Shown piece after piece: positions 529 to 63,496 of a DNA stretch of 64,000 nucleotides. Numbering within the stretch: the first letter of the stretch is position 1; each line of letters starts with the position of its first letter. The stretch spans positions 864,001 to 928,000 of the forward strand of contig CBDCDC010000002.1 of assembly GCA_965215195.1 (NCBI GenBank), given 5' to 3'. The position numbers were made by a program, and so were the translations under genes. This DNA is from Candidatus Latescibacterota bacterium (lineage in GTDB: Bacteria > Latescibacterota > UBA2968 > UBA8231). The notes under the pieces are model-generated. The model did no database searches and was not told the DNA's origin. It saw nothing but the letters and a program-made list of their open reading frames with translations.

Positions 529-1731
529 TTATACCTCCCTTAGCCAGTCCTCGGGGATGTCGATCCCAAAGCCGGGACCTTGGGGCAGGCCGAGCCGGCC
601 GTTTTGTGGCACGTTGGTCCCCGGCGGAACTTTGTAGTGTCGTTGCCCCCACTTTGAAGGCGTCCCAATATAGCACTCGGCCAACGGCACGCCGGGCAGC
701 GATCCGACGAAAAACTCGATCAGCGGGGTATTGGGCATGGCCGCTGTCCAGTGCTGGCCATAAGGGTCGTTGCCCCCGGTGTGCAGGCACATCTGGACGC
801 CTTGCGAATCGGCGAAATGGGCCAACTTCATGGCCTCGGTAAAGCCCCCGATCCAGTAGATATCGGCCTGGATCAAATCGACGAGCCGCTCCTGTACGGC
901 CCTCATGCCCGGATGGCGAGTGGACCAGTGCTCGCCATCGGCCAGCGTCTGCCAAGGTACGCGCTGGCGCAGGGCGCGGTGCCCCGCCCAGTCGTGGGGC
1001 ATCAGCATTTCCTCCATCCAGCGCATCCGATACGGCTCGAGGGCCTCGCAGAGGCGCACGGCAAAGTCGAGGTCAAAGGTCATCCAGCAATCGAGCATCA
1101 AGTCGGCGTCCGGGCCGATTAACTCGCGGCACTTGGCCATCAACTCAACCGTGCCGTCGATTCCGGCTTGGCCATCAACGGGTCCGTAGGGACGGGCCAG
1201 CTTGAATTTTTTGAAGCCCAACTCCAAGTACCAATCCACGTCGTTGCCGGTGGCATAGGCTTCCATCTGGGTGCGCTGCGGGCCTCCGGCCAGCCGATAG
1301 ACGGGCTGGTCGAGGGTTTTGCCCCACAGGTCCCACAGCGCCAGATCGACCCCGGCGACCGCCCGCGCCGTAAGCCCTTCGTTGCCAAAGGACAGCGTCC
1401 CCCGCCACATGCGATCGTTGCACCGATCGATGGCCCCCACTTCTTGCCCGACGACTAGGGGGGCTAGGCACTCGGCGATGATCGGCTGGGTCGCATGAGC
1501 CGAATCCGTGCGGCCCAAGCCAAAGGTGCCGTCCTCGGCGATGGCCTTGACCCAGATCTCCCCGCCCGGCTTGGGCATGATCCGCTCCTCGGGCGCGAAT
1601 TTATCCATCGGCGTGGCCTGCTTAGGTGCCCAAAGCCACGTCTGCTCGCGCCGCGGCCGGGTGCCCTCCGCGCTCGGCCGCGGCGGCGACAATTCAAAGG
1701 TTTGGATAGCAGCTATTTTCTTGGCGCACAA
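529..1731 (-). CDS. Enolase-superfamily acid-sugar dehydratase (L-rhamnonate dehydratase-like)
   Basis: AGVDLALWDLWGK..QPVYRLAGG, YATGND, KFKL, MLDCWM, WMEE and GEH motifs. Start uncertain (TTG 1731 chosen; ORF extends to 1785). Confidence 0.85.
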   Translation of the reverse strand: MCAKKIAAIQTFELSPPRPSAEGTRPRREQTWLWAPKQATPMDKFAPEERIMPKPGGEIWVKAIAEDGTFGLGRTDSAHATQPIIAECLAPLVVGQEVGAIDRCNDRMWRGTLSFGNEGLTARAVAGVDLALWDLWGKTLDQPVYRLAGGPQRTQMEAYATGNDVDWYLELGFKKFKLARPYGPVDGQAGIDGTVELMAKCRELIGPDADLMLDCWMTFDLDFAVRLCEALEPYRMRWMEEMLMPHDWAGHRALRQRVPWQTLADGEHWSTRHPGMRAVQERLVDLIQADIYWIGGFTEAMKLAHFADSQGVQMCLHTGGNDPYGQHWTAAMPNTPLIEFFVGSLPGVPLAECYIGTPSKWGQRHYKVPPGTNVPQNGRLGLPQGPGFGIDIPEDWLREV

Positions 1732-1762
1732 ACTCCCCGTCCTCTCAGGAAAGAATCCATAG

Positions 1763-2221
1763 TCAAGCATTGCATGGCTCTTCACCTTGAGCCGTCATGG
1801 ACGCATTACCGTCATCGGGCAAATCCAAGAGCCTTTTGATCGCGGCGACCACAAAGTTCGCATCCTGCGCCGCCTGCCGTGCATCTTCTCTAGTGTACTT
1901 GTGCTCCAAATAAAACGCCGGTGCCCGAGCCTGCGCTAGCCATAGGGAAATCTCTTCGATTCGGTCTAGTTCCTGAGTATCTGCGGATTCCCGCTTCTGC
2001 CGGAATTGCTCGGAAAACACCGGGGCAACATCGTGTACTTTGGGATAATCTACACCCAGCACTTTTAGGCCCCCCTTTAGGGCAAGCTCGACGACTTCCT
2101 GAGATCGCCGCACGGCCAGATTGGAGTCCTCTTCTTGCAGGGCACCTTGAACATCGCGCAGGTAGATGCGTTCACCTTCGGCGATTAGCTGCTTGCCAGT
2201 CGCTTGGAGGCTGTCCTTCAT
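1763..2221 (-). CDS. HEPN domain protein
   Basis: From ATG 2221: AVRRSQEVVELALKG...DYPKVHDV...ARAPAFY (R-x4-Y)...YTREDARQA. Overlaps the upstream nucleotidyltransferase stop (ATGA). Confidence 0.85.
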   Translation of the reverse strand: MKDSLQATGKQLIAEGERIYLRDVQGALQEEDSNLAVRRSQEVVELALKGGLKVLGVDYPKVHDVAPVFSEQFRQKRESADTQELDRIEEISLWLAQARAPAFYLEHKYTREDARQAAQDANFVVAAIKRLLDLPDDGNASMTAQGEEPCNA

Positions 2222-2745
2222 AACACCAATACCTCGTCCGGTTTCAGATCTGGTTTTAAGTCCCAGTACCAGCCGCTGTCGCGCCGGATTTTTCGCGCAC
2301 CCAATTGCCGCAGCCTGTCCTGTAACTTGTCTAAGCGATGGCGAAAAAAATGCCCTCGATCTAGGAGAATCCGCGCCTCTTCGATCATGTCTAGGTAGAG
2401 CGGCAGGTTTTGGTCTGCCTCTTCTCGCGAGAGAATGACGACGTTGGGGGAAGGAAAAATGTGTTGCGCAACTAGTTCCGCCCAGCAGGCTTGGCACCGC
2501 AGATGTCGCAAGAGAGGCAGCAACAACTGAACCCGTTCGCGAAAGACCGGAGGAGCCTTTTCCAGCACGAGCAGCAAATCCACATCGCTTTCCGTTGTCG
2601 CGTTGCCGCGAGCCACAGACCCATAGAGGACAACGGAAAGGACCGCACCACCCAGTGCCTCTTGGACCGAGGCAACGAAGCAGTCAAGCAACGGCTTATA
2701 GGTTGGGTAGCCGAATTTGGCCGCCTCGACAGCTACGACTTTCAC
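2218..2745 (-). CDS. Minimal nucleotidyltransferase (MNT) domain protein
   Basis: VVLYGSVARGNATTESDVDLLLV = GS-x10-DxD. GTG start at 2745 follows AGGAGG. Confidence 0.9.
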   Translation of the reverse strand: MKVVAVEAAKFGYPTYKPLLDCFVASVQEALGGAVLSVVLYGSVARGNATTESDVDLLLVLEKAPPVFRERVQLLLPLLRHLRCQACWAELVAQHIFPSPNVVILSREEADQNLPLYLDMIEEARILLDRGHFFRHRLDKLQDRLRQLGARKIRRDSGWYWDLKPDLKPDEVLVL

Positions 2746-2786
2746 GGCTTGCCTCCTGAAGTTAGGTTGGTGCATCTATTTGCTGC

Positions 2787-3815
2787 TTACAGTTCGAGTT
2801 GGCAGCCTCGTTCAGCCGCCTCGTACGCCGCCTCGACAAAGCGCATGGCCTGCAAGGCATCGTCGCCATGGGTGATAAAAGCACCCCGCCCGCGGCTGGC
2901 GGCGACAAAGTCGGCGATAAAACCCAACCCGGCCGCCCCCCCGTACCCGGGGGCCTCGCCGACCGAGAGGTCGAATTGGCGGTACTCGTCCTCGGCCCAG
3001 CCCTCGGCTTGGCTCTGGACGATGAGCCGGTCGCCGCGTCCATCCCAATTTTGCATCACCCAAGTCGCATCCCCTGCGGTTCCCCTGAAACACAAGTAGA
3101 TATCGCCGTAGCGGCGCGGCAGGACATAGCCGGCGTGCAGGCTGCCTAGCGCACCGTTGTCCATGCGGAACGAGGCGGCGAGCACGTCCTCGACGTCGAT
3201 GCCGGTGCCGCTCAGGGTCGCCTTGTGGGCGCTGACGCTCCGGTATTCTAAGCCGCTGATATAGCGGATTAGATCGACCGTGTGGATCGCCAGCCAGTGT
3301 AGGATCCCCCCGCCCGCTTGAGCGCGGTCAAAGAGCCAGTGGTCCGGGTTGCGCTGCTGCACGGTGCTGGTGACCATCCGCCCCTCAATGGAGACGATGC
3401 GGCCCAAGACGCCGGCCGCGATGAGTTGACGCGTCTTGTCGGCAATCGGATGGCAGCGGTTCAAAAAAGCCGTCGCCCACAAGACCTGCTGGGCGGCCGC
3501 TATTTCGTTGAGACGGGCGATGGCAGTGGCCGTGCGGGCGACCGGCTTTTCGGCAATGGTCGGCACGCCGGCCTGCAAAAGCTGGGCGATGAGGGCGGGC
3601 GCTTGGTCGTTGCGCGTACATACTATGGCTAATCCCAGCTTCTCGCCCGCCAGCAGCGCGTCTAGGTTGCCATATACCTGATCGACGCCGGTACATTCTT
3701 CGGCCGCGCAGACGACCAACCGGCCCACGGCCGCGCAGTGCTGTAGCGAGGTCAGCCAACCCTTGCTGTGGGGATTGTCCAGCCCGACGAGGGCCGCGCA
3801 TACTTTATCCGTCAT
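2787..3815 (-). CDS. Gfo/Idh/MocA family oxidoreductase
   Basis: EKP motif, AGGGILHWLAIHTVD, DVED. Start moved to MTDKV at 3815. Confidence 0.9.
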   Translation of the reverse strand: MTDKVCAALVGLDNPHSKGWLTSLQHCAAVGRLVVCAAEECTGVDQVYGNLDALLAGEKLGLAIVCTRNDQAPALIAQLLQAGVPTIAEKPVARTATAIARLNEIAAAQQVLWATAFLNRCHPIADKTRQLIAAGVLGRIVSIEGRMVTSTVQQRNPDHWLFDRAQAGGGILHWLAIHTVDLIRYISGLEYRSVSAHKATLSGTGIDVEDVLAASFRMDNGALGSLHAGYVLPRRYGDIYLCFRGTAGDATWVMQNWDGRGDRLIVQSQAEGWAEDEYRQFDLSVGEAPGYGGAAGLGFIADFVAASRGRGAFITHGDDALQAMRFVEAAYEAAERGCQLEL

Positions 3816-59665: not shown

Positions 59666-60457
59666 TTACAGGGCGGCGATTTGGCGCATGCGCGCACCGA
59701 GATCAACGAGTTCATCGCGGCTGCCGCCCACTTCGTGAATCAGGGTGGAATCGTATCCCACCGCCCGCAGGGCGGCCATGACCGCCGGCCAGTCTGTGTC
59801 CCCTTCGAGCAGGTTGACGAAGCAGTGCTCACTGCGGCGAAAATCCTTAAAATGGACCTTCTTGATGCGCGGCCCCAACTCGCGGATCCAGTGCTCTGGG
59901 TAGCCGTAGGCCATCATATTGGCCGTGTCGAGATAGATGCCCACCCACTCGCTGCCGATTTCATCGACGAAAAGCCTAGCTTCGCGCGGGCTGAGCAGGA
60001 ACTTGTTCCAGACGTTTTCCAAGCCAATGGCCGCCCCCATGTCCTCGGCGAGGGGGACCGTATCGATCAGCGCGTCCCGCAACCCATCCCAAGCCTGCTG
60101 ATAGGTCCCCTCAACCGCTAGCTGGCCCGGGTGCAAAAGCACCCCATCAACCGCCAGCGCACCAGCGATCTCGAGCGAGCGCCGCAAGCACTTGAGACAT
60201 CGCTCGCGCTCGCCGGCATCGCGGCTGAGCAGATTGCCGCGCTCTTGGTACCAGACGATGACGCTGCCGATTTCAACGCCAGCGTCCGCGCACTGCTGCC
60301 CGACCTGCGCGATCTCGCTGGCACTCATGTTTGGATCCAAGTCCTTGCCCTCGGCAAAGACCAACTCCACGGCTTGGTAGCCAGCGTCCGCGCACAACCG
60401 CAGCGTGTCCGCCAGCGACACGTCTCCTAAGACGATTTGGGTAATCCCTATTTTCAT
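59666..60457 (-). CDS. Sugar phosphate isomerase/epimerase (hexulose-6-phosphate isomerase-like)
   Basis: IGLENVWNKFLLSP, YLDTAN, VHFKDF, LLEGDTDWPAV; AGGAGG RBS. Confidence 0.9.
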   Translation of the reverse strand: MKIGITQIVLGDVSLADTLRLCADAGYQAVELVFAEGKDLDPNMSASEIAQVGQQCADAGVEIGSVIVWYQERGNLLSRDAGERERCLKCLRRSLEIAGALAVDGVLLHPGQLAVEGTYQQAWDGLRDALIDTVPLAEDMGAAIGLENVWNKFLLSPREARLFVDEIGSEWVGIYLDTANMMAYGYPEHWIRELGPRIKKVHFKDFRRSEHCFVNLLEGDTDWPAVMAALRAVGYDSTLIHEVGGSRDELVDLGARMRQIAAL

Positions 60458-60468
60458 AAAAACCTCCT

Positions 60469-60913
60469 GGGATACTGACGTTTTGAAACGTCAGAGGGAT
60501 AAGGATTCAACGGACGACGGGCGGGCAACGCACCCGGCGTTGTTCGTCCCGGAGTCGGTTGAAAAAGGTTGCCGGTGTGAATACTTGTTCGTACTTCTTT
60601 TTTTAGGTTGAGCACCCAACCTTCAGATCCCAGAGCGTTCCACCGACTCCGGGCCGGGTCCACGCAACCGTACCGTTGCCTCTGTTCCTGCTGGCGTTCG
60701 CGTTCTGGTAGGTATCCGCACACCGGACGGTGCTGCGGCCGGATACCGAGGAGGCGTTTGGAAACGGCGACGGTTTTCAAGCCCAGCAGCCAGTACGGTG
60801 GTAATGCGTCTCGTATACTCCTCTCACTCGCTGAATACCGAGTCGCGGCGGAAGAGCGGGAGAGGGTAAAGCCGACTTCTTTAGAGGTCGGTGGCATTAC
60901 TATAGTACCTCCC
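60469..60913 (+). ncRNA. Candidate large structured non-coding RNA, family unassigned
   Basis: At least eight nested helices found by eye, with G-U wobbles consistently on the + strand. See findings. Confidence 0.55.
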
Positions 60914-61022
60914 CTTGGACAGAAAGTTACGACCCAGCCCGCTGGCCTTCCACACCCGTTTGAAGCCCGGACGCAAAATCGCTACGTTTGTCCTCCTAAC
61001 TTCAACTTAATAGGAGGCCATC

Positions 61023-61916
61023 ATGGCAGAAACAATCGGGTTTGTCGGCGTCGGGCGCATGGGTTCCAACATGGCCCGCAACCTCGCGGACAAAGGCTTC
61101 AACATCTCGGCCGTATTCGACGCTAGTGCCGACGCCGCCCAAGTTCTAGCCGCAGAGCTCAGCTGCGCCGCCCCCCAAACCTTAGCCGCGGTTACGGCCC
61201 AATCGGACGTGGTCATCACCGTGGTGACCGACGACGACGCAATGCGCTCAATCTTCGCCACTTCCGGCGACTCACTGCTCACCGATGCCAAAGGCACGAC
61301 CTTTATCAACTGCGCCACCATCTCGCCGGCCGTCCACGTAGAGGTCGAAGAGCGCACCGCCGCAGTCGGTGCCTCCTCGCTCGAAGGCTGCATGGCCTCT
61401 AGTATCACCCAAGCCCGCGAGGGCACCCTGTACCTAATGTGTGGCGGCAAGCGCAGCGTCTTTGACCAAGTGCATCCCATCCTCGACGCCCTGAGCGTTG
61501 ATTTGCGGTACATTGGCCCGGCCGGCCAAGCGGCCCAAGTCAAGGCCCTCGTCAACATGGTCATGAACATCAACACAGCCGGGCTAGCCGAGGGGTTGGG
61601 GCTAGGGCAAGCCCTCGGACTGAACCTAGAAATGCTGATGAAGGTCTTTTCTCAGACTGGCGCGAACTCACGGGTACTGGAAACCGACGGCGAGGACATG
61701 ACCATCCGCGACCACGAGTGCTATTTCTCCGCCGACCACGCGGCTAAAGATTCCGGCATCGCCCTTGAACTGGCGCAACAGGCCGGACTCAGCCTGCCGC
61801 TGGCGCAAGCGACCAAGGATCAATACGAAAAAATGAAAACGCTGGGCCTCGGCGATCTCGACAAGTCGGGCATTGCCGAGTTGACCTTTCCCGGCCGCAA
61901 AGGCTCCACGCAGTAG
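61023..61916 (+). CDS. NAD(P)-dependent oxidoreductase, 3-hydroxyisobutyrate dehydrogenase family
   Basis: IGFVGVGRMGSNMARNL, GTLYLMCGG, KALVNMV, KDSGIAL. Confidence 0.93.
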   Translation: MAETIGFVGVGRMGSNMARNLADKGFNISAVFDASADAAQVLAAELSCAAPQTLAAVTAQSDVVITVVTDDDAMRSIFATSGDSLLTDAKGTTFINCATISPAVHVEVEERTAAVGASSLEGCMASSITQAREGTLYLMCGGKRSVFDQVHPILDALSVDLRYIGPAGQAAQVKALVNMVMNINTAGLAEGLGLGQALGLNLEMLMKVFSQTGANSRVLETDGEDMTIRDHECYFSADHAAKDSGIALELAQQAGLSLPLAQATKDQYEKMKTLGLGDLDKSGIAELTFPGRKGSTQ

Positions 61917-61962: not shown

Positions 61963-62487
61963 CTAGATTCGCCCGTGCCGGATGTCCACCATCCGCCGCG
62001 TCAGTTCAAACCGCAGCGCTTCCCCGCGGAAAAACCGCACGAACTCATCGACCATCACCGAGAAATAGCGGCCAAAGGTCTCGGGCGCATACCAAGCTAT
62101 ATGGGGGCTGACAAAGACGTTGGGCAGGTGGCGCAGGAGGCTGTCTTTGGGCAGCGGCTCTGGGTCGAAGACATCGAGTCCGGCGATTAGCTCGCCCCGC
62201 GCCAGCCGCTGCGTCAGTTCCCCGTAATCCACGACCGGCCCGCGACAGCAATTGATCAGGATGCGACCGCAGCCCAGCAAATCGAGCTCCCGCGCCCCGA
62301 TCATTTTTTCGGTCTTAGGCGTGTGTGGGACTTGAACGACGAGGATGTCGGCGTGTTGCAATACCTCGTCGAGCGAGCCGCGCACAATGCCCAGCTCAGC
62401 GGCCACTTCCTCGGGCAAATACGGGTCGGCGACGCGCAGGTCCACCCGAAAGGGGCTCGGCCTCTCCCACCGAATGAGGTCACTCAT
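61963..62487 (-). pseudogene. D-2-hydroxyacid dehydrogenase, C-terminal part only (probable internal deletion)
   Basis: ADPY, VPHTPKTEKMI, INCCRGPVVD, AGLDVFDPEPL, SPHIA are present; the substrate-binding N-domain and GxGxxG are absent. Confidence 0.7.
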
Positions 62488-63496
62488 GCATCGCCAACCA
62501 ATCAACTGCGGCTTGCCGCCGCGCCTGCGGCGTCTCTGCGTCCGCTGGCAAGCGGTGCAATTCCCAAGCGATCTCGTGCGTCAAGGTCTCGCCCACCTGC
62601 AAATAGACCCAAGGGCTTAACAATTCTAGTTCGGTGTAATCCGGGCAGGTATAGACCTCGGCACTCAGGCCCCCGTCCGGGTAGCGCTGGGTCGCATCGC
62701 GGCGAAAGAACTCGGCCATGACCACGTCGCCGACAATGCCGGCCAGCCAGCGATCCGAGTCCGCTCCGGTCTTCTGCGCCTCCACCGGGTCGGGCACGAA
62801 AATGCCAATGTCGCCCTCGATGGTGAAGTTGCGCATGGCCGCGCCCTCGGCAAAGCCAAAGGGATGGTAGCGCAGATCGAAGTGGCTGTGCGGGTTGAGC
62901 GGATAGAGGGTCTGCTCGGGCGGCCGGATTTGGGTGACGTTCCATATTGTGTAGCGCAACGGCTCAACCTTGGCGGCCACCAGCTTTTCGATCCGCTGGT
63001 GAATCTCCACGCGCGTACCCCGTTCCGCCAAGCGAATTTCGCGTACGCTGCGCGCCCCATTGTACTCGCTCACCGGGCTGGTGATCACCACTCCCCCGGG
63101 CAGCAACTCAACCTCGTGTACCGCGCCATCGAAAGCGTGGTCGGGCGGCCAAGAGTGGCCGTTGATTTTGACAAAATCGCTCTGCTGGTTGGGCCAGACC
63201 TTGTCGCCGCCAAAATTGGTCCACGCGTACTGGCCTTCCTCATCGACATTGGGCTGGCCGCCGGGCAGCACCTGACCGTGAAGCTCGGGATCGGACCAGA
63301 GAATGTTTTCGCCCCCGACAAACCCGTAGTGCATGATGCGACCAATGGCCGGCACCACGACTACGCGCACATCGGGATTGGCAATTTCAATCGAGTTTGC
63401 CCAACCCTCGTATTCGATTTTCTCGACTGTGACCTCGGCCATAGCGGGCGCGACCAGCGCCAGTACCCACCCAACAGTCCATTGTAACCTGCACAT
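62480..63496 (-). CDS. Exported protein, galactose mutarotase-like/DUF4380-like
   Basis: Signal peptide; YEGW...VVVPAIGRIM...GENILW...NFGGDKVWP...YTELELLSP. Confidence 0.7.
   Translation of the reverse strand: MCRLQWTVGWVLALVAPAMAEVTVEKIEYEGWANSIEIANPDVRVVVVPAIGRIMHYGFVGGENILWSDPELHGQVLPGGQPNVDEEGQYAWTNFGGDKVWPNQQSDFVKINGHSWPPDHAFDGAVHEVELLPGGVVITSPVSEYNGARSVREIRLAERGTRVEIHQRIEKLVAAKVEPLRYTIWNVTQIRPPEQTLYPLNPHSHFDLRYHPFGFAEGAAMRNFTIEGDIGIFVPDPVEAQKTGADSDRWLAGIVGDVVMAEFFRRDATQRYPDGGLSAEVYTCPDYTELELLSPWVYLQVGETLTHEIAWELHRLPADAETPQARRQAAVDWLAMHE

Follow-up and report, generated by a model that had tools for sequence, protein, structure and literature searches.

Palindrome-associated transposable elements (PATEs) are gene-less derivatives of IS200/IS605 transposons and have been described in haloarchaea and Geobacillus. 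They retain the left and right ends of an IS200/IS605 element, have lost the genes between them and are mobilised in trans. The element described here resembles them in these respects and is located in a 64,000-nucleotide stretch of DNA from Candidatus Latescibacterota bacterium (assembly GCA_965215195.1, contig CBDCDC010000002.1, positions 864,001 to 928,000; the whole stretch is called the window), where it occupies positions 60458-60900. It is a gene-less, PATE-like IS200/IS605 derivative that is present or absent in natural populations. Unlike PATEs, its ends are not simply fused, since a covarying domain of 190 nt with candidate pseudoknots stands at the place of tnpB, and its other strand has retained both a Shine-Dalgarno sequence and an open frame.

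IS608 and ISDra2 move by the peel-and-paste mechanism of a Y1 transposase (TnpA), and IS608 has a characteristic hairpin geometry and a TTAC target. The window element is like these two in that its hairpins lie about 17 and 8 nt from the ends, a 4-nt target flanks it on the left, its right end carries a 4-nt motif and insertion duplicates nothing, and is unlike them in its TCAT target, its TTAC right end and its enrichment at start codons. The omega RNAs of TnpB (also called reRNAs; ISDra2, ISGst) are a further point of comparison, and the scaffold of the ISDra2 omega RNA reportedly measures about 130-230 nt. The window element shares with omega RNAs a 3' core on the tnpB strand that includes the right hairpin, stops at the right boundary and, in relatives, overlaps tnpB at its 3' end. 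It differs in that it has no Rfam match, in that the upstream scaffold is not the same in short and tnpB-bearing elements, and in that it is known here from DNA alone. According to Meers et al. (bioRxiv 10.1101/2023.03.14.532601), PATEs frequently encode an omega RNA, to be used by a TnpB made elsewhere, and Gomes-Filho et al. (PMC4615843) showed expression of PATE-derived RNA in Halobacterium. IStrons are IS605/IS607 elements fused to group I introns. The window element is like an IStron in having a structured noncoding part inside IS605 ends and in the RNA-level lowering of the cost to the interrupted gene that is proposed here. It is unlike one in having no intron signature, in lying antisense to the host gene and in the proposed translation through the element in place of splicing.

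As kinds of system, PATEs, omega RNAs and IS605 biology are known already. The literature searched (supplements not covered) contained no report of start-codon targeting or translational pass-through by IS200/IS605 elements, nor of a covarying domain without counterpart that replaces tnpB or of an open frame without protein constraint. The analysis removes a false lead, as the locus appears to hold neither a riboswitch nor a new housekeeping RNA, and it contributes, from a phylum about which little is known, an IS605 derivative that has sharp limits and is polymorphic in nature. The large domain of covarying RNA at the place of tnpB could widen the range of guide-RNA scaffolds known so far, and the enrichment at start codons bears on site choice by single-strand transposases. 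A frame that is open without protein constraint points to translational sparing of the interrupted gene, a counterpart to the intron-bearing IStrons.

Boundaries, ends and relatives of the element

The element lies in a divergent gap of 565 bp (60458-61022) between a gene for a xylose-isomerase-like TIM-barrel protein and a gene for a 6-phosphogluconate-dehydrogenase-type (6PGDH-type) protein. An earlier note on this DNA had pointed out the same gap and had taken 60469-60913 for a large structured RNA, a long leader of the dehydrogenase gene or a non-autonomous structured mobile element. Public contigs of four runs were compared with the window over 60000-61400, and the exact empty-site joint was found in two of the four. 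In run X5, a contig of 2,092 nt passes straight from 60000-60457 to 60901-61400 and differs from the window in these two parts by 1 and 5 letters. Run X7 has a contig with the identical joint, skipping 443 nt that begin with AA and end with AC, which leaves no ambiguity in the placement of the joint ("both 0"). Because these contigs join 60457 to 60901, the unit is exactly 60458-60900 and not the interval of the earlier note. The TCAT on the left and the T at 60901 belong to the flank; TCAT is kept in the empty-site contig and nothing is duplicated.

That the element moved in the population recently is seen from public contigs, where its presence at this locus varies, and from the source genome (95.2% complete, two contigs), which carries four short copies, including that of the window, at unrelated loci. 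One of them (C2:2097588-2098031) is 95% and another (C2:67607-68051) 92% identical to the window element. The remaining copy (C2:2116799-2117315) aligns as two segments, with about 89% identity in the left 113 bases and 66% in the remainder, and contains an extra insert. Two further loci in this genome (C2:972029-972650 and C2:1592737 onward) have only the first 110 nt in common with the short copies, the former also the last 57 nt, and both enclose the N-terminal part of a TnpB-like open reading frame (ORF). TCAT directly precedes the element in 6/6 copies of this genome and in 11/11 short copies, and every copy that possesses the right end terminates in ...ATTAC. A profile of the interior, searched against the whole genome, returned the four short copies and nothing further. 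Among 76 genomes of the family the element is present in 12, all of one genus; sister genomes hold diverged and decayed copies, and three more genomes of the genus hold truncated ones. A pattern scan of metagenomes for a motif of the interior gave 0 matches, and three matches to a right-end motif were rejected as chance because none has blastn or tblastn similarity to the element.

Two variants of the short copies were also seen. Four copies (L004 1610-1680, which is C2:2116912-2116985 of the source genome, L012, L030 and L031) carry 40-70 nt of additional A/T-rich sequence directly behind the left end. This insert holds inverted repeats of the type CCATAGA...TCTATGG and might be an operator or a promoter. 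A mini element of 187 bp (L013 1500-1691, genome G028), in which the left end is fused to the last ~60 nt, is located at the start codon of a 459-aa ORF and shows that further internal deletion is tolerated.

The ends are those expected of the IS200/IS605 family. Two imperfect subterminal hairpins (60475-60494 and 60871-60892) lie on the same strand, are similar to each other and show compensatory changes; the left one begins 17 nt inside the left boundary, and there are no terminal inverted repeats. The constant TCAT and the unambiguous joint amount to insertion next to a fixed tetranucleotide without duplication. Relatives with the same ends carry tnpB, with or without a Y1 tnpA. Sister genomes within the genus have a 1.32-kb element that is bounded by the left 113 nt and the last ~100 nt and whose single gene encodes a 377-aa TnpB (L018 390-1523; PF07282, E 4.8e-25; PF01385 at 28.1 bits, under the cut-off of 30.5). 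A second relative has a Y1 transposase gene (tnpA) followed by a different tnpB. Its left end follows CCAT and has the same two-hairpin layout, and its right hairpin is near-identical to that of the window element, with the terminal TTAC. It is likely the source of transposase for the family, because its end hairpins are close to those of the window element. This autonomous-looking element of ~1.7 kb was found at L051 ~1317-3040 (G045) and also at L050 (G034) and L049 (G032), and ends in ...GGCTTAC.

When an nhmmer profile was built from the short copies, the tnpB elements aligned with it only over model positions 1-113 (up to 157) and 344-445. All tnpB loci match the latter segment, which there extends from the 3' end of tnpB as far as the right boundary; the tnpA+tnpB elements match positions 2-96 and 412-442. 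Since it has its subterminal hairpins, the TCAT on the left and the final TTAC in common with the tnpB and tnpA+tnpB elements, the window element is read as a PATE-like IS200/IS605 derivative. Of the proposals in the earlier note it is thus the mobile element that was borne out, by the copy number that the note had wanted determined, by ends of the IS200/IS605 type and by the empty-site allele. The element would move as top-strand single-stranded DNA next to TCAT, through a Y1 TnpA supplied in trans.

A multi-copy group of TnpB proteins about 40% identical to the 377-aa TnpB occurs in G045, G035 and G032 and not in the source genome; it is found at G045:C1:5981054-5982112 and at least 30 further places in the genus. 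In elements of this group (L059-L064) the left end is related (L061, E 2.6e-17) and the right end weakly so, and the short-copy profile matches their six loci at the ends only.

The gene content of the carriers speaks against the PATE-like reading. The source genome has no Y1 TnpA and no match to PF01797, so its copies are stranded for now; Y1 (PF01797) genes are present in 15 of 31 genomes of the genus. Nor does the source genome have an intact TnpB; its single TNB-domain match falls in an open frame of 155 aa and is probably a remnant. An intact close tnpB was not found in any of the four genomes with full short copies (G000, G045, G035 and G032), so a cognate TnpB for an omega RNA is not in sight. 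The TNB match (Cas12f1-like, 74.4 bits) lies at C2:4150642-4150818 and is the only one in the source genome.

The plus-strand fold and a possible guide RNA

The plus strand of the gap folds at -226.6 kcal/mol (z -4.02, with 0/100 shuffles as good), and the minus strand at z -2.58 (1/100 as good); for the element alone, the z-scores are -3.97 for plus-strand and -3.25 for minus-strand RNA. Covariation was examined in alignment A2, which holds ten short copies from four genomes with 70% identity between lineages, and in alignment A3, which holds the 3' 300 nt of nine copies. RNAalifold predicts 121 pairs on A2, 70 of them with double changes, and there are 82 pairs on A3, 43 with double changes. 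The copies are related and form about six lineages, so that counts over them overstate independence. In A3, 95.2% of cells are paired versus 80.9% in shuffles, none of 500 shuffles reaches any of the five measures used, and only 37-53% of cells remain paired when partners are slid. Individual helices are well supported by double changes, for example in 8/9 pairs of H2 and 8/8 pairs of H8. The consensus of 136 pairs includes 133 G-U cells as opposed to 13 A-C cells, and several of the G-U pairs are invariant across all copies. The folded strand is therefore the plus strand, which is both the tnpB-sense strand and the top strand of transposition.

Much of what the earlier note had read into the fold is upheld by these results: folding is significant against shuffles, pairs covary across nine to ten copies, and the non-Watson-Crick pairs favour the plus strand. 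Among the helices it had listed, the hairpin at 60475-60494, AAGGTTG/CAACCTT, GGTATCC/GGATACC and the hairpins at 60816-60868 and 60871-60892 covary, whereas the "perfect 12-bp" stem, ACCGTAC/GTACGGT and CTGCTGG/CCAGCAG are seen in the lineage of the window only. It had seen no hallmarks of RNase P, tmRNA, SRP, 6S or common riboswitches. The search of Rfam covariance models gave no match in the gap at E up to 10, and at E up to 1 none in a total of 27 kb from 8 related loci. The families without a match include RNase P, tmRNA, riboswitches, group I and group II introns, the IS605-orfB motifs and HgcC. The three matches that were listed (E 3.8-5.4) fall in the neighbouring gene, far under gathering scores. 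A new large noncoding RNA, as the note had proposed, is possible given a conserved plus-strand fold without counterpart in Rfam.

Two tertiary pairings are candidates. The possible kissing interaction between 60611-16 and 60729-34 stays complementary in other lineages, as AGCACA/TGTGCT in one and CACAG/CTGTG in another. The formal count for the two pairings together is modest, with 94.8% of cells paired and 2 pairs with a double change, values that 29/500 shuffles reach. In the stem that closes the 3' core, GTAAT/ATTAC is invariant within the short class and the alignment gives no test of it; the sixth pair of this stem is C-G in one and G-C in the other of the short and tnpB-bearing classes.

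The last ~100 nt of the element are homologous to the region of the relatives that overlaps the last codons of tnpB and extends to the right boundary. Because of this overlap and of the reach to the boundary, the 3' core has the position of an omega RNA. For the last 100 nt, and for these only, three features of such an RNA are present (location on the tnpB strand, contact with the right end, homology to the 3' region of tnpB elements), and they would correspond to the guide-RNA core of the tnpB relatives. That the covarying interior is the enlarged, lineage-specific scaffold of a plus-strand omega-type RNA of ~300 nt, reading into the right flank, is given slightly less than an even chance. 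The 3' core of this RNA would be inherited from tnpB relatives, the 5' two-thirds would be a lineage-specific scaffold in place of tnpB, and, going by TnpB biology, the right flank at 60901-60920 would hold the guide, as an omega-RNA transcript extends some 16-20 nt beyond the right end. Judged by eye, 60571-60604 is similar to the sequence that immediately precedes the tnpB start in the 1.32-kb elements. On this comparison the interior would set in at the point where tnpB is expected to start, and 60571-60604 may serve as promoter for the plus-strand RNA.

Several observations count against an omega-type RNA. The ~190 nt of the interior (60605-60802) have no nhmmer match in the tnpB relatives, where model positions ~158-343 stay empty, and since the interior has no homologue in tnpB elements, the case for a guide scaffold is one from position. 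A scan of 60300-61100 for sigma-70 promoters and terminators gave 0 sites of either kind. The one RNA run compared (X20) has no contig on the element, so that no transcript was seen, a result that is uninformative on expression. The same genomes that carry full short copies (G000, G045, G035 and G032) have no cognate TnpB. An origin of the interior from TnpB coding sequence was considered and rejected, as tblastn against three short copies gave a best E of 0.56 and each plus frame has 3-9 stops.

The fold could instead serve the single-stranded DNA stage of transposition, by uniting the hairpins for TnpA or protecting the excised circle, with the interior as a DNA transposition enhancer. The folded strand is the top strand with both TnpA hairpins, the plus strand also folds better than shuffles under DNA parameters (z -3.58, which tells against an RNA role as well), and the cognate TnpB was not found in genomes with full copies. 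However, G-T pairs are weak in DNA, and the fold has its 133 G-U cells, several of them invariant. The candidate loop-loop or pseudoknot pairings and the long invariant unpaired stretches look more like an RNA-protein scaffold, and the 3' core is homologous to the omega RNA position of tnpB elements. A function at the DNA stage is the main alternative and is regarded as unlikely. Much less probable still is a domesticated or free-standing new noncoding RNA that works for the host and uses the transposon ends merely as a vehicle. Strong covariation, the absence of an Rfam match and the persistence of copies in a genome without TnpA or TnpB would suit such an RNA, but its copies sit at unrelated loci, are present or absent at this locus, are truncated or decayed in other genomes and are restricted to the 12 family genomes of one genus.

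Siting at start codons and the minus-strand frame

In the empty allele, the TIM-barrel gene on the minus strand is preceded by GGAGG, 7 nt and its ATG. In the filled allele, the PATE-like element is inserted exactly between the native spacer and the ATG, antisense to the TIM-barrel gene, and the minus strand reads GGAGG-TTTTT-ATG. Other copies have purine-rich equivalents at the same place (GGAGG, GGGAGG, CGAGG and GGAGA). Copies of the element lie at host start codons far above chance. A left end could be recognised in 23 distinct copies, and 17 of these lie against an ORF of at least 60 aa whose start is the ATG inside TCAT. When 16 of the flanking ORFs were scanned, 14 had Pfam matches at E<=0.001 and 13 were above the curated cut-off; the families include HisG, PLP decarboxylase, enolase-superfamily enzymes, SIMPL, STAS and helix-turn-helix (HTH) proteins. 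Random ATGA sites in the source genome start such an ORF in 35.8% of cases, have GGAG/GAGG 4-16 nt upstream in 9.7% and have both in 4.5%. Among 18 copies with both flanks the numbers are 14, 7 and 6 (binomial p 3.5e-4 for the ORF and 9e-5 for both), a test in which some sites may be orthologous and targeting is inseparable from the survival of tolerated insertions.

The minus strand of the element contains a frame of 147 codons. Its ATG (60897-60895) lies in the right end, 10 nt downstream of the native GGAGG of the TIM-barrel gene, and its TGA overlaps the host ATG as ATGA. The frame is free of internal stops in six of the ten short copies (that of the window, G000c, G045a, G035, G045b and G032, the last with a 51-nt insert), which belong to three lineages out of about six; in the other two minus frames there are 3-10 stops. 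It is open in none of six tnpB elements, which also have no ATG in the right end. The length of the element is 2 mod 3 in 9/10 short copies and 1, 0, 0, 2, 1 and 0 in the six tnpB elements. Shuffling leaves the frame open in 1.2-2.4% of trials, and after simulation of the observed number of random substitutions it stays open in 3% and 2%, before the 1-in-3 chance of the correct phase is taken into account.

The frame could be a real protein gene (60454-60897) that is translationally coupled to the TIM-barrel gene. It is open in six of ten copies at 70% nucleotide identity, has an ATG start and overlaps the next gene by ATGA. Substitutions between the window and G045a are, however, spread evenly over the codon positions (41/46/43), from which it follows that the frame is not a conserved protein. 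Indels of 2, 2 and -1 nt shift the frame and compensate each other, and the middle of the predicted peptide is entirely different between lineages. The peptide is Arg- and Pro-rich, of low complexity and without a Pfam match, and the same DNA covaries as a plus-strand fold. A protein gene is thus highly improbable, and the alternative that the earlier note had set against a structured RNA, protein-level conservation of the overlapping frame, holds in so far as the frame is kept open and fails in that the protein is not conserved.

Ribosomes that start at the native GGAGG and the ATG in the right end would translate through the highly structured RNA of the element (minus-strand z as given above), and the GGAGG of the element together with the ATGA overlap would allow re-initiation on the host gene. 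That pass-through translation with re-initiation lowers the cost of insertion to the host gene is a tentative proposal, with somewhat more doubt than belief attached to it. A wider version, in which a "stealth" element is coded on both strands, is possible and rather doubtful. The top strand would provide a pseudoknotted RNA of ~300 nt in place of tnpB, kept by selection, and the bottom strand an ATG, a stop-free frame without a set protein sequence, a Shine-Dalgarno sequence and the ATGA, so that the element could occupy its preferred site, between ribosome-binding site and start codon, without silencing the genes. If such an RNA is kept even without a matching TnpB, it would either guide a distant TnpB or act in its own right.

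Three points argue against pass-through and the special role of start codons. Open and closed copies number 4 and 3 at gene starts and 2 and 1 elsewhere, so that openness is not tied to location. The mini copy of 187 bp does not keep the phase. Collection of the left ends depended on a pattern that includes TCAT, and at least 5 loci without a match to the pattern are uncounted.

A cis-regulatory leader or riboswitch of the dehydrogenase gene at 61023, or a self-splicing intron of the IStron type, is scarcely credible: the element does lie 122 nt upstream of that gene on the same strand, and IS605/IS607 elements that contain group I introns are known, but it is found beside unrelated genes and the locus exists without it, which excludes the leader proposed in the earlier note, while the Rfam searches described above gave no intron or riboswitch, the element ends in C and not in G, and its orientation is opposite to that of the genes at whose start codons it lies.

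Features of the locus and neighbouring observations

Coordinates of the element, its parts and the flanking genes are listed in Table 1.

Table 1. Features of the window around the IS200/IS605-type element, in window positions
Feature	Position	Strand	Basis or remark
Xylose-isomerase-like TIM-barrel gene	59666-60457	-	PF01261, E 3.9e-45
6PGDH-type gene	61023-61916	+	Other flank of the gap, 122 nt from the element
Whole element, non-autonomous IS200/IS605 family, PATE-like, 443 bp	60458-60900	+	Empty-site joint; no target-site duplication
TCAT target motif (transposon-adjacent motif), left flank	60454-60457	+	Minus strand 60457-60455 is the ATG of the TIM-barrel gene
Left end, common to tnpB-bearing and tnpA+tnpB relatives	60458-60570	+	nhmmer profile of short copies; alignment
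Element-borne Shine-Dalgarno GGAGG, 5 nt upstream of host ATG	60463-60467	-	Read from the sequence
Left subterminal hairpin, presumed TnpA binding site on the top strand	60475-60494	+	8 pairs, several double changes (A2 columns 22-42)
Possible remnant of the region upstream of tnpB in 1.32-kb relatives	60571-60604	+	Similarity judged by eye
Interior domain, helices H1-H9, confined to short elements	60605-60802	+	Covariation; unmatched in tnpB-bearing relatives
H1 loop AGCACC, candidate kissing partner of GGTGCT 60729-60734	60611-60616	+	Complementary variants between lineages
CTGGC, candidate pseudoknot partner of GCCAG 60789-60793	60691-60695	+	One lineage has CCAGCG/CGCTGG
3' core common to tnpB elements	60801-60900	+	nhmmer; alignments; H10 and H13 covary
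Parts of the 3' core: GTAATGC...GCATTAC closing stem; hairpin; right subterminal hairpin; terminal TTAC	hairpin 60816-60868; right hairpin 60871-60892; TTAC 60897-60900	+	
147-codon frame, possibly for pass-through, ATG 60897-60895 to TGA 60456-60454	60454-60897	-	ORF list, translation
Right flank with native Shine-Dalgarno of the TIM-barrel gene, CCTCC 60908-60912 (GGAGG on the minus strand)	60901-60920	+	Sequence, empty-site contig

The metatranscriptome of run X20 contains a 634-nt contig (window 60420-61035) that joins both flanking genes through 220 letters unlike the window. As it is only 85-95% alike, this contig appears to come from a relative that has a different spacer and no element.

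Downstream of the 6PGDH-type gene, a 180-aa ORF on the minus strand (61963-62505) matches only the C-terminal two-thirds of 2-Hacid_dh_C (profile positions 56-178) and overlaps the end of a DUF4380 ORF on the same strand (62480-63496) by 26 nt. It could be a truncated gene or one whose start has been mis-set.

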